64,000 bases of DNA, taken from assembly GCA_023412915.1 (NCBI GenBank), contig JAEZRE010000001.1, positions 23,040-87,039 on the forward strand, in the 5' to 3' direction. Shown one piece after another: positions 24,123-61,975 of this stretch. The notes below the pieces were generated by a model, which was not told where the DNA came from, did no database searches, and saw nothing but the letters and a program-made list of their open reading frames with translations. The position numbers and the translations under genes were made by a program. Every line of letters starts with the position of its first letter. The first letter of the stretch is position 1. Origin of the DNA: Bacillota bacterium (GTDB taxonomy: Bacteria; Bacillota; Clostridia; Acetivibrionales; DTU013).

Positions 24123-24195
24123 CTATTTGTCAGGTCTTTTCATGTCTCTCCATTTTTCGTATGCTTTCCGGCAATGTTGAAATAATAAACATACA

Positions 24196-24239
24196 GGATG
24201 TTTAGCGCCCTTGGCGCGCGAATTTCCACTAAAACATCC
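24196..24239 (+). repeat. 44-nt structured repeat, copy 1
   Basis: GGATGTTT-A-GCGCC-CTT-GGCGC-GCGAATTTCCACTA-AAACATCC. It has an 8-bp outer stem and an inner GC hairpin. Confidence 0.8.
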
Positions 24240-24244
24240 GCCGA

Positions 24245-24288
24245 GGATGTTTAGCGCCCTCAGGGCGCGAATTTCAATTAAAACATCC
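24245..24288 (+). repeat. 44-nt structured repeat, copy 2
   Basis: GGATGTTT-A-GCGCCC-TCA-GGGCGC-GAATTTCAATTA-AAACATCC. It lies 5 nt after copy 1, and the inner stem is kept by compensatory changes. Confidence 0.8.
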
Positions 24289-24322
24289 ACAGTGGAAATT
24301 ACTAAAATATGAGGATGATAAG

Positions 24323-25546
24323 ATGTATAATGACAGGAAGATTTTTGGGAAAATATTGATAACCTCGCTTGCATGTTCGCTGGTAGTTGGTTTGCTCGTT
24401 TTCTTCGCAGCGCCGCGGTATATCTCGCTTAACGAACCCGCCGGAGACAGGCAGAGCGGTAACGCCGCGCAGCAACTGCAAGCGCCTGCAGGAAAGACCA
24501 CTTCGGGAACGGACATGGTAAAAGGACAGCAGCAAGCTTTAAACGGAGGCCCCATTCTTAACGAGCTCGGACTTGCAGCTCCGGTTAGCCAGCTGGTTGC
24601 ACAAAAAGCGACTTCCGGGGTTGTGGGGATAACGGTCGAAAGGATCACACAGGACGGCGTCTTCAATAAGGACAGGGCAACCGAGATAGGTGTCGGTTCC
24701 GGGGCCATTGTAAGCCAGGACGGCTACATTTTAACCAACAACCATGTCGCAGGCGGTAAAAGCAACAGGATAACAGTATCATTCGCCGACGGAAGAAATG
24801 AGGACGGCGAAGTGGTCTGGGCGGATCCCGTGATCGACCTTGCCGTCGTCAAGGTAAATCTTACAGGTCTCACGACTCTCAAGCTCGGCGATGCGACCAA
24901 GCTCCAGGTAGGGGAGCCTGCCGTTGCGATCGGAAATCCTCTGGGTCTCGAGTTTCAGCGATCGGTTACCTCGGGCATAGTAAGCGCTTTGAACAGGACT
25001 ATCAGCATCGATACGGACGCGGGCACCAACTACATGGAAGACCTGATACAGACGGATGCAAGCATAAATCCGGGAAACAGCGGCGGACCGCTGCTCAATT
25101 CCAAAGGCGAAGTGGTCGGCATCAATACGGTAAAGGTCGAAAGCGCTGAAGGCATGGGATTTGCGATACCTATAAACATAGCCAAGCCGATAGTTTCAAA
25201 ACTTGTCGGGACGGGAAAATTTGCGGAGCCCTATCTCGGGGTGTTCGCTTATGACCGCGCGGTGTTCCCGTATATAAACGGAGCGCCCGATGTACCGGAC
25301 GGAGTATTTATCTCGAAAGTTGACAATAACGGTCCCGCATTCAGGGCAGGGATCCGGCAGGGCTGCGTAATAAGCCAGATTGACGGAATAACGATCAATA
25401 CGATGCTGCAGTTGAGGGAATATCTTTATTCAAAGACTCCCGGAGATACGGTCAAGCTCACGCATCTGAAACAGGGCACGAATAACTGGGCTTCGGCAAC
25501 CGTTGTGCTTGGTGAAAAAACGAAGGATGGCATGATTACAAGATAA
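24323..25546 (+). CDS. htrA: HtrA/DegP-family serine protease with a PDZ domain, membrane-anchored
   Basis: N-terminal TM helix, catalytic H (LTNNHV), D and S (GNSGGPLLN), and a C-terminal PDZ domain. Confidence 0.9.
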   Translation: MYNDRKIFGKILITSLACSLVVGLLVFFAAPRYISLNEPAGDRQSGNAAQQLQAPAGKTTSGTDMVKGQQQALNGGPILNELGLAAPVSQLVAQKATSGVVGITVERITQDGVFNKDRATEIGVGSGAIVSQDGYILTNNHVAGGKSNRITVSFADGRNEDGEVVWADPVIDLAVVKVNLTGLTTLKLGDATKLQVGEPAVAIGNPLGLEFQRSVTSGIVSALNRTISIDTDAGTNYMEDLIQTDASINPGNSGGPLLNSKGEVVGINTVKVESAEGMGFAIPINIAKPIVSKLVGTGKFAEPYLGVFAYDRAVFPYINGAPDVPDGVFISKVDNNGPAFRAGIRQGCVISQIDGITINTMLQLREYLYSKTPGDTVKLTHLKQGTNNWASATVVLGEKTKDGMITR

Positions 25547-26083: not shown

Positions 26084-26363
26084 CAATTAATTTAAAAAGG
26101 CAGCGCAATGAAGGAAAGAAGACAGCTTCCGGGTGCTCAAGAGAGCCGGTGTTTGGTGCGAACCGGTGCATAGGATCTGTGGATGACTCGTTCCGGAGCT
26201 TCATTATTGCGATATGTAAAATTGCAGTAATGACGTTGACTACGTTACAGTCAAGTACAAAAGTACTTGCCGAGGATAAGCGAAATGCTTGTCAAATCAG
26301 GGTGGTACCACGTTGGAAGTTTCCCTTCGTCCCTGCAGTAATGCAGTTGGCGAGGGGTTTTTT
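26084..26363 (+). promoter_or_regulatory. T-box riboswitch leader (probable Leu specifier CUC) with terminator
   Basis: Stem I has an AGAGAG bulge (26139-26144) and the distal loop GGTGCGA (26154-26160). The candidate specifier CUC is at 26187-26189. The T-box sequence AATCAGGGTGGTACCACG is at ~26295-26312. The terminator CCCTTCG../..CGAGGGG plus T6 is at 26323-26363. Confidence 0.85.
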
Positions 26364-60435: not shown

Positions 60436-60479
60436 TTGACTGCGGATAAGGCCGATGCTAGAATAATGCTGTATATACA
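60436..60479 (+). promoter_or_regulatory. Candidate promoter of the hexokinase-like/dhaKL operon with a TGTATATACA operator
   Basis: TTGACT (60436-60441), 17-nt spacer, TGcTAGAAT (60456-60464), 5 nt, then the perfect palindrome TGTATATACA (60470-60479). Confidence 0.55.
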
Positions 60480-60573: not shown

Positions 60574-60618
60574 GGATGTTTGGCGCCCTTGCGGCGCGAA
60601 TTACCGCTGAAAACATCC
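60574..60618 (+). repeat. 44/45-nt structured repeat, copy 3
   Basis: GGATGTTT-G-GCGCC-CTTGC-GGCGC-GAATTACCGCTG-AAAACATCC. It ends 16 nt before the start codon at 60635. Confidence 0.8.
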
Positions 60619-60634
60619 ATAAAGGAGAGACCGT

Positions 60635-61975
60635 ATGGAAAAGACGCTTCTTCAAAGGCTTGACAACGATATGGACGCGGAGCTGGCCAGACTCATAGGG
60701 TTATTCAAGGAGAATAAGGCGCCCGTCTTCAATTCGTATATGAAGGAACACTTCAGGATCGCCAAAAGCAAGCCCGACGCATTTGCAAACCACCCGCCCG
60801 TATTGGCGATCTCGCTGGGCGGAACCAATCTCAAGCTTATGATTGCGGGCATGAAAAACGGCACTATGATGGTCGAACATGTCAGGGCGACACAGATCCC
60901 CGCACATCCTGTTGAATTCACCGAATTTTTTGACGAGATTCTGGTGCGCGACGAGTATATAAAAAATTATCTAAGCAGAAGTGAAAACACTTTTGTAGGT
61001 TTCTCCTTCCCGATGGCGATCTTCGACGGCGTGCCCTTTCACCCCACAAAGGTCCCCAATTTAAAGGGAGTCATCGTGCGGGACATGAAAGACCTGAACC
61101 AGGATTTCAATTTCGGGAAAAATTTCGATATTTACCTGAAAGACCGCGGCTTCCACCCGGTCGAGCTGTTTTACCAGTCCGACGGCATAATAGCGCACCA
61201 CGGCGCAGTAGCGCTGTGCGATACGGAGCTCGAAGACAGCACTACGCTGATCATCTGCGGAACGGGTATGGCGACCGGCGACGAGGAAAATTACATCCAG
61301 CTGGGCATAGCAGAAATAACAGATAATGACGAAGAAATATATCCCGCCTCTGAAACGGAGAATCACCAGTACCAATATGCCATGGCGGGCAAGGGGCTGT
61401 TCGGATTGATGAGAAGATGCATCGGGATCGCGGCTGAAGAGCCCGGAGCACACCTTGCAGGGCACGATCTGAGCGAGTTTTTTACGGACTCGCAGGGCTC
61501 AAAGACTACCGTGCAAATATGGGAAAGCAGCCTTGCAGGCGGTGTGCCGGAGGATGAGGCCAAAACGATAGCGGACAGGGTCGGTCCCGAAGCCTACGCC
61601 GAGCTGCAGCAGATAGCGGGAAAAATCGTGGAAAGGGTCATTGGTTCGATCGCGAACAGTGTTGTTTCAACGATCGTAAAGATGGGCCCTGCCGTGAATA
61701 AAAAAGGCCATCTGGTATTTTTCGAGGGTAGTGTCGTGAACAATAGAAATATACTGCCGAGGGTAAAGGCCGAAATCGTCCGGAGGATCAATAATGCCGG
61801 GCTGTACAGCCGCATGGGGGTACCACAGCCCATACTACCCGATATGGAGAGGACACTGAAGCCTTTGAGAGCCTGCGGCGGGCTTCCCGAAGCATTGCTG
61901 GCAGACGTTGATATAACGCTCATAGGAGCGGCGTCATCGGTCATGGCGGAAACCTGCTTGAGGAAACAGGGATAA
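60635..61975 (+). CDS. Hexokinase-family (ASKHA fold) sugar kinase-like protein
   Basis: Phosphate-1 motif LAISLGGTNLKL, ICGTGMATG, and C-terminal FFEGSVV and LIGAASS blocks. These parallel the hexokinase DLGGTNFR / GTGxN / DGSV / GAA motifs. Confidence 0.55.
   Translation: MEKTLLQRLDNDMDAELARLIGLFKENKAPVFNSYMKEHFRIAKSKPDAFANHPPVLAISLGGTNLKLMIAGMKNGTMMVEHVRATQIPAHPVEFTEFFDEILVRDEYIKNYLSRSENTFVGFSFPMAIFDGVPFHPTKVPNLKGVIVRDMKDLNQDFNFGKNFDIYLKDRGFHPVELFYQSDGIIAHHGAVALCDTELEDSTTLIICGTGMATGDEENYIQLGIAEITDNDEEIYPASETENHQYQYAMAGKGLFGLMRRCIGIAAEEPGAHLAGHDLSEFFTDSQGSKTTVQIWESSLAGGVPEDEAKTIADRVGPEAYAELQQIAGKIVERVIGSIANSVVSTIVKMGPAVNKKGHLVFFEGSVVNNRNILPRVKAEIVRRINNAGLYSRMGVPQPILPDMERTLKPLRACGGLPEALLADVDITLIGAASSVMAETCLRKQG

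Follow-up and report, generated by a model that had tools for sequence, protein, structure and literature searches.

A family of small hairpin repeats positioned directly upstream of Shine-Dalgarno sequences in one family of Acetivibrionales

On balance, we lean towards the view that the hairpins described here are small, structured repeats dispersed through the genome, a family peculiar to one lineage that is constrained as RNA and acts in mRNA leaders. The best reading of the data is a duplicative hairpin module, resembling the MIRU and REP elements, which resides in the leaders of mRNAs. The family was recognised in a stretch of 64,000 nucleotides (the window) that lies in contig C18 of the source genome, G000 (3.8 Mb, 24 contigs, 88% complete). 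Copies were identified with a covariance model, R1, built from 44 distinct copies, and were compared with those in two genomes of the same genus, G001 and G003.

A pattern search of the window for GGATGTTT-N(20-40)-AAACATCC returned exactly three matches, all on the + strand and all of the form GGATGTTT-N28/29-AAACATCC, against an expectation of 0 from 100 shuffles. These are the copies at 24196-24239, 24245-24288 and 60574-60618 that a first-pass annotation of the window had listed, and its account of the inner GC hairpins, of the GCGAATT segment and of the distances to the start codons (34 nt to the ATG at 24323 and 16 nt to the ATG at 60635) proved accurate. The elements and genes at the two loci are:

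24196..24239, + strand: repeat copy 1, by pattern match and R1 match (G000:C18:47234-47279, 56.6 bits); outer stem GGATGTTT/AAACATCC, bulged A, inner hairpin GCGCC-CTT-GGCGC, 3′ internal loop GCGAATTTCCACTA
24240..24244, + strand: spacer of 5 nt between the tandem copies, GCCGA, read from the sequence
24245..24288, + strand: repeat copy 2, by pattern match and R1 match (69.8 bits); inner hairpin GCGCCC-TCA-GGGCGC
24291..24300, + strand: AGTGGAAATT, exact complement of 24221-24230, read from the sequence; local to the htrA leader and outside the repeat family
24311..24315, + strand: Shine-Dalgarno sequence GAGGA of the htrA-like gene, read from the sequence
24323..25546, + strand: gene for an HtrA-like serine protease of 407 aa, 3′ of copies 1 and 2, by open reading frame and Pfam
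60436..60464, + strand: sigma-70-like promoter TTGACT-17-(TG)TAGAAT, about 110 nt 5′ of copy 3, a consensus match only
60574..60618, + strand: repeat copy 3, by pattern match, R1 match (54.9 bits) and folding; inner hairpin GCGCC-CTTGC-GGCGC
60621..60627, + strand: Shine-Dalgarno sequence AAAGGAG, starting 3 nt past copy 3, an arrangement typical of the repeat family
60635..61975, + strand: uncharacterised open reading frame of 446 aa, 3′ of copy 3, with faint ASKHA/hexokinase-like signals only

For copy 2 the proposed structure is the minimum-energy fold (−16.8 kcal/mol, z = −4.3), and copy 1 has a folding energy of −14.6 kcal/mol. An intrinsic terminator, that is a GC-rich hairpin with a U-tract, was ruled out at both window loci, where the hairpin is followed by AAAGGAGG and a terminator-like site is not found. 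Compensatory change had been claimed for the inner hairpins of the three copies. In the window these stems are constant (GCGCC/GGCGC, with just one extra C-G pair in copy 2), and the compensatory change that does occur lies in the outer stem and is visible only genome-wide. The complementarity reported between AATTTCCACT (24221-24230) and AGTGGAAATT (24291-24300) is exact; the larger alternative helix that it was thought to form around copy 2 is missing from the minimum-energy fold, and the 10-bp helix has no family-wide counterpart, with 7 of the 10 bp retained in three congeners, which keep only GGAAATT or GGATATT at the complement site.

Pfam bore out the HtrA-like label (Trypsin_2, 6.5e-36; PDZ_2, 2.1e-12). 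The hexokinase-like label given to the 446-aa product found no confirmation, as Hexokinase_1 (E = 0.19) is under the cut-off, and so is BcrAD_BadFG (E = 0.003), leaving 0 Pfam domains above threshold; the product of 60635-61975 may be a divergent protein of the ASKHA fold. The repeat had not been recognised as a named RNA family, and Rfam agrees. Only a T-box at 26099-26337 reached the gathering score in the window, the repeats overlap nothing better than E = 1, and a literature search for the motif string found no searchable paper that contains it. The T-box leader (+ strand, 98.3 bits) lies 5′ of a 575-aa open reading frame starting at 26289 and is unrelated to the repeat. Ahead of the htrA leader we also observed a conserved TTTT(C)CGTATG ... 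AATAATAA (window positions 24140-24195; approximately 2385-2440 in L028-L030), which is present whether a genome carries the repeat or not and is probably the htrA promoter or operator. A simple sigma-70 scan misses it.

Across G000 we found 60 R1 matches in 34 clusters. Four clusters sit at contig ends (C1:38-128, C9:31-121, C5:3-186 and C15:213495-213585) and are arrays of near-identical units. Flanking sequences in the sister genomes join the start of C1 to the start of C9 (a pepT-like gene, at least 4 units) and the start of C5 to the end of C15 (fabG, at least 6 units), so that the contig-end clusters pair up and 32 loci remain. The element is 42-46 nt long and occurs as a single copy or as a tandem array, with between 2 and at least 6 copies per array. 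The unit length comes to 47-50 nt, and purine-rich spacers of 5-6 nt separate the copies, for example AAAGA or AAGGA at loci other than htrA. A CRISPR array, with its unique spacers of ~26-72 nt, was rejected on the length and purine-rich composition of these spacers.

The position of the repeat follows a simple rule. At 31 of the 32 G000 loci a start codon on the same strand follows the last copy by 1-33 nt, usually 12-19 nt, and a GGAGG-type Shine-Dalgarno sequence begins 3-7 nt past the outer stem. The two congeners obey the rule at 66 of 71 loci, and the five exceptions are contig-end cuts, the spoIVB case described below, or loci where a degenerate copy follows. The rule also holds in other genera and, judged by eye, at 25 copies from 26 metagenome stretches. 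Among more than 250 copies from G000, the two congeners and the metagenome stretches none was antisense. The flanks are purine-rich and resemble Shine-Dalgarno sequences (A-R-G-N-A on the left, A-A-R-G-G-R-G-G on the right), and about ten loci fill the entire intercistronic spacer from the upstream stop codon to the next Shine-Dalgarno sequence. The sole rule-breaker in G000 (G000:C5:120047-120138, − strand) consists of two copies and a truncated third right after the spoIVB stop codon, ~300 nt ahead of spo0A and with no adjoining Shine-Dalgarno sequence; the same layout is found in G001 (L149) and G003 (L205).

In the fold, an outer stem of 8 bp that covaries is joined by a bulged A to a GC-rich inner hairpin whose apical loop is free, and the 3′ side has a conserved internal loop of 12 nt, G-R-A-U-U-U/A-C-N-N-N-U-A. 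Within the G000 copies the inner stem is almost invariant. Two pairs of the outer stem vary there, pair 3/46 (GC 23, AU 12, UA 3, GU 3) and pair 5/44 (UA 35, CG 6, UG 3). Among 125 distinct copies from relatives 98% of the cells are paired and double changes occur in 8 of 13 pairs, counts that kinship inflates since orthologous copies are non-independent. None of 500 shuffles reached the observed pairing, and slid registers likewise fell far below it. In a distant genus the inner stem also shows a compensatory change (GCGCU/AGCGC), and the porD-porA spacer carries three paired variants in three genera, GAAUG/CAUUC, GGAUG/CAUCC and GGACG/CGUCC.

The two types of stem mismatch are unevenly represented. 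Read on the sense strand, 219 copies (169 distinct) contain 74 G·U and 17 A·C mismatches, and at the two covarying pairs the ratio is 46 of the G·U type to 1 of the A·C type (GU 40 vs AC 0 and CA 1; UG 6 vs CA 0). A C-to-T excess is absent at unpaired G and C positions, and the preference for G·U over A·C is therefore not due to mutation bias. The strand bias points to pairing in the sense RNA. Recognition of a hairpin in one DNA strand could also give an excess of G·T over A·C, and we consider pairing in one specific DNA strand the less likely source.

Conservation outside the stems falls on the bulged A and on G26, A28, U29, U30, C32, U36 and A37 of the internal loop, and the apical loop is unconstrained in sequence and 3-8 nt long. 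Orthologous copies in G000 and G001 were compared with four-fold degenerate sites from the downstream genes. The whole element (last copy) is 91% identical, against 73% at the four-fold degenerate sites; by part, identity is 96.7% in the outer stem, 94.8% in the inner stem, 88.4% in the internal loop and 68% in the apical loop. That the apical loop is close to neutral argues against wholesale gene conversion and for position-specific purifying selection. Once in place, the stems and the internal loop are held by purifying selection on the sense RNA. The first-pass annotation had proposed a functional RNA or a REP/MITE-like element, and had taken random orientation without covariation as the sign of a simple REP. 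Sense orientation is seen at 31 of the 32 loci in G000 and at 66 of the 71 in the two congeners, and the copies covary; constraint at the RNA level and the dispersed nature of the repeat are thereby supported, and a gene-specific regulator, a simple REP and the larger alternative helix are not.

R1 matches were found in 19 of 24 genomes of the same Acetivibrionales family, in 12 of the 15 genera sampled, with 42-69 matches per genome within the genus and 1-25 elsewhere in the family; the three genera lacking a match are g7, g8 and g15. The 15 sister families sampled gave no R1 match, save one marginal. Certain positions are occupied in several genera. Six genera have the repeat in the rplN-rplX spacer and three have it at porD-porA; at glgC, rplT and gatB it is present in two genera per site. 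Nearer to the source, 26 of 31 G000 loci are common to G001 and 12 to G003, and each genome has private loci. The htrA site is filled within the genus only, where it is bordered on both sides by ACA or ACAA, and distant HtrA loci are empty. Ten further comparisons of filled with empty sites place the insertion between the upstream stop codon or leader and the GGAGG core, and some of the filled sites carry purine duplications of 2-4 nt (GGG, AAG[GA], GAAG). Copy number at the same gene varies across species, for example at least 6 against 1 at fabG.

Copies are also lost. Decayed or internally deleted remnants are present at five G000 loci (C15:39231, C20:11054, C7:205411, C22:47528 and C6:37001), in one example as GGATGTTTAGCG joined directly onto TAGGAGGG. 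The orthologues of these five genes have intact copies in G001 or G003, showing that some copies are dispensable. We also observed a divergent subfamily, AGTATGTTGAGTGCG...GCACGAATTACCTTTACAACATACA, at L114, L117, L119, L123, L128, L132 and L133 (genomes G005 and G014), with compensatory changes in both stems and often away from a Shine-Dalgarno sequence. In G014 this subfamily lies inside a larger repeat of 65-68 nt whose flanks are rich in GC (gcgagcag...gcgaagcgg). The subfamily may represent a relative that is older or was mobilised in a different way.

This turnover raises the question of whether the repeat is purely selfish or neutral mobile DNA of the MITE/REP kind, inserted by an enzyme beside Shine-Dalgarno-like purine tracts, with the hairpin used as single-stranded DNA and the RNA having no role. 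We regard this as unlikely, though it keeps a real share of probability. The ends of the unit are perfect 8-bp terminal inverted repeats (GGATGTTT/AAACATCC), and the filled and empty sites in close genomes, the short purine duplications at some of them and the decayed remnants are all as expected of such an element. Stem-variant subfamilies are scattered over the loci, with GAATG/CATTC at 8 of them, and the arrays act like variable-number tandem repeats that break the assembly. However, symmetric terminal repeats predict both orientations and only one is seen, which means that ordinary transposition fits poorly. Covariation of the outer stem through G·U intermediates is not expected of transposase-binding ends, and the contrast between orthologous stems and internal loop (88-97% identity) and an apical loop evolving at the neutral rate also speaks against an RNA without a role.

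No mobilising enzyme could be connected to the repeat. The Y1 transposase (PF01797) is absent from G000 (88% complete) and from G003; in genus g7 it occurs in 11 of 12 genomes, and both g7 genomes that were scanned for the repeat lack the repeat. No R1 match was found near any of the ten Y1 loci examined. A REP/RAYT or IS200-derived element was rejected on this absence of either a phyletic or a physical tie. Separated left and right ends, the configuration of an autonomous parent insertion sequence, were not found in G000, and viral contigs gave no match to the repeat. Flank similarity within loci was not significantly above that between loci (permutation p = 0.07), and a locus-specific target-site duplication is thus not significantly supported. 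We infer instead that the unit would insert, in a single orientation, into a purine-rich stretch just 5′ of a Shine-Dalgarno sequence, and would then be gained or lost locally as a tandem repeat. The purine-rich, Shine-Dalgarno-like flanks on both sides suggest copying anchored on short homology, and such copying would explain the position, the orientation and the absence of an enzyme.

A site acting at the level of DNA, such as an operator or a palindrome bound as double-stranded DNA by a nucleoid protein, is very improbable. The inverted repeat GGATGTTT...AAACATCC has the form of such a site and some copies are near promoters, as in the htrA leader. Against this, a change in one half-site is accompanied by a change in the other, with G·U intermediates confined to a single strand, the apical loop of 3-8 nt alters the spacing between the half-sites, the orientation relative to the gene is strict, and many copies lie inside operons or at least 100 nt past promoters, after riboswitch terminators.

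The genes downstream are unrelated housekeeping genes, ~30 in all. They include rplX (L24), rplJ (L10), secA, pheS, aspS, and the genes for a PPi-PFK and an [FeFe] hydrogenase, together with vorB/porA, glgC, asd, trpB, leuC, holB, OadA, SpoVAE and htrA. One two-copy array (G000:C5:192342-192438, + strand) is followed by an open reading frame of 554 aa in which phosphopentomutase and cytidine deaminase are fused. At four loci the repeat lies between a known leader and the Shine-Dalgarno sequence, the leaders being a T-box (trpB and pheS), a lysine riboswitch (asd) and the L10 leader (rplJ). Since it coexists with these leaders, the repeat is not a gene-specific riboswitch; the unrelated genes and the existing leaders argue for a generic unit on mRNAs that already have regulators of their own. 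A gene-specific cis-regulatory RNA (a riboswitch, a thermosensor or a switch that sequesters the Shine-Dalgarno sequence, with the alternative helix as its expression platform) is thus extremely improbable: its place beside the ribosome-binding site in 5′ leaders, the anti-Shine-Dalgarno-like UUCCUYU in the internal loop of about two-thirds of the copies and the 10-bp complement at the htrA locus are set against a copy number of 1 to at least 6 that differs between species at the same gene, loop-to-flank complementarity no better than in shuffled or cross-locus controls, an alternative helix without covariation and no match in Rfam.

Several specific RNA mechanisms were also rejected. An alternative helix P1′, in which the 5′ arm pairs with GRAUUUCC, is part of the minimum-energy fold of copy 1, yet it shows no covariation and half of its outer cells are unpaired. 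For an anti-Shine-Dalgarno switch or an RNA thermometer, the duplex between the internal loop and the downstream flank (−4.78 kcal/mol) was compared with cross-locus pairs (−5.13 kcal/mol) and shuffles (−4.55 kcal/mol) and does not stand out. Between the internal loop and its own upstream flank there is a weak excess (−3.94 vs −3.63 kcal/mol), which is confounded by orthologues. The element does not raise the predicted accessibility of the Shine-Dalgarno sequence, as an insulator that frees it would; the predicted unpaired probability is 0.476 in the native sequence, 0.496 with the element shuffled (not significant) and 0.554 with it deleted (p = 0.005). A conserved leader peptide was discarded, as the frame differs from copy to copy with the length of the apical loop, and CsrA-type GGA sites were discarded because the GGA takes part in pairing and can be replaced by GAA or GUA. 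Mimicry of the 16S rRNA 3′ end (GGAU..CCUC) is speculation from a partial resemblance, the rRNA being unassembled in G000.

By sequence and by defining features the repeat belongs to none of the MIRU, REP/BIME, Neisseria REP2 or TAACTGA families, but it shares traits with each. MIRUs are units of 40-100 bp present in ~40-50 copies per genome (Supply et al. 1997, in the summary given by PMC3184786). As that summary has it, they too are direct tandem units in operon spacers, co-transcribed and oriented with the genes; they contain internal inverted repeats rich in GC, short direct repeats accompany their filled and empty sites, and their copy number varies between strains. The present repeat likewise lies in operon spacers as tandem units that share one orientation and vary in number. 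The same summary describes small reading frames in MIRUs that overlap the neighbouring genes; the repeat here has none, and its apical loop of 3-8 nt means that no reading frame is kept. The two also differ in sequence and in phylum, and the present repeat is tied to the Shine-Dalgarno sequence and shows covariation of the RNA type.

The REP/BIME elements of Enterobacteria and Pseudomonas, associated with RAYT, are short imperfect palindromes in tens to hundreds of copies that are transcribed within operons, with stems kept by compensatory change. They are known to stabilise upstream mRNA segments. Our repeat is similarly a palindrome-containing unit, 42-46 nt long, with 60 extragenic copies. 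However, it has the head A-GGATG in place of GTAG and no associated Y1/RAYT gene, its arrays run head-to-tail whereas REP clusters alternate, and it lies in a single orientation 5′ of genes whereas REPs are mostly 3′. An integron attC site was rejected, with core sites in the wrong order and associated genes of the housekeeping kind.

Neisseria REP2 and the Borrelia IR are dispersed directly 5′ of genes, contain internal stem-loops and are closely linked to the ribosome-binding site (PMC3184786). In contrast to these, the genes studied here have their promoter at another place or carry the element within an operon. The hairpin precedes the Shine-Dalgarno sequence, and its units are arranged in tandem. 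The TAACTGA heptamers are direct repeats of Beggiatoaceae, Cyanobacteria and Bacteroidetes (MacGregor 2015, PMC4679880). They too occur in tandem a few nt 5′ of the start codons of many unrelated genes, including ribosomal protein genes, and a post-transcriptional regulator is suspected (PMC4679880). They are unstructured units of 7 nt (PMC4679880), unlike the 44-nt hairpins before strong GGAGG sites found here.

Codon adaptation of the downstream genes, measured with the ribosomal-protein cluster as reference, is above that of the genome (median ~80th percentile, Mann-Whitney p = 1e-4). This bias is ambiguous, since its cause could be insertion into highly transcribed DNA and not a function. 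Within the preferred reading of a hairpin module in mRNA leaders, we tentatively suggest, as a possibility short of an even chance, that it is a generic module for highly expressed genes and not a ligand-binding or gene-specific switch. The repeat is predicted to be co-transcribed with the downstream gene and to fold in the mRNA. A stable hairpin beside the ribosome-binding site, or pairs of hairpins around an A-rich single-stranded spacer, might then define processing sites, and the hairpins might block exonucleases at the termini of mRNA segments. The abundance of the downstream cistron would thereby be uncoupled from the upstream part of the transcript.

Hairpins that lie 5′ of a ribosome-binding site or between cistrons set the stability of mRNA segments in Firmicutes, as in the stem-loop leaders of aprE and ermC, the processing of cggR-gapA and the selective RNA processing of Ruminiclostridium. 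By analogy, these stabilisers could serve as a working model for the function of the repeat. They differ in being unique, locus-specific structures, whereas the present hairpins are a repeat family. The main alternative within the module reading would be an RNA-binding factor, specific to the bacterial family, that has the conserved internal loop as its target. Both processing with end protection and a site for a factor agree with the position rule, the A-rich spacers, the intercistronic sites, the bias towards high expression and the conserved loop.

A more far-reaching version would make the hairpin the site of a dedicated trans-acting factor, an RNA-binding protein or endoribonuclease specific to the bacterial family, which would read G-R-A-U-U-U/A-C...U-A, and the hairpin would define a post-transcriptional regulon. 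We consider it rather unlikely. Such a regulon would comprise ~30-45 highly expressed genes, among them ribosomal protein operons, aminoacyl-tRNA synthetases, glycolysis, the hydrogenase and secA. The repeat would be a self-spreading RNA module, and the response of a gene would be tuned by the number of copies it carries.

Bacteria commonly carry small dispersed repeats. Few of these are tied so strictly to one place in the mRNA, and this one is found inside ribosomal-protein operons and after riboswitches with clear signs of selection on its RNA fold. The covariance model R1 allows the family to be annotated. Its arrays break short-read assemblies and, as they vary in copy number among close relatives, could serve as typing loci. 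If copying anchored on Shine-Dalgarno sequences is true, the repeat colonises translation-initiation regions without a transposase. If the hairpins are functional, they would represent a portable expression module serving the most highly expressed genes throughout one family of cellulolytic-type Clostridia, and would be relevant to the engineering of expression in these bacteria.
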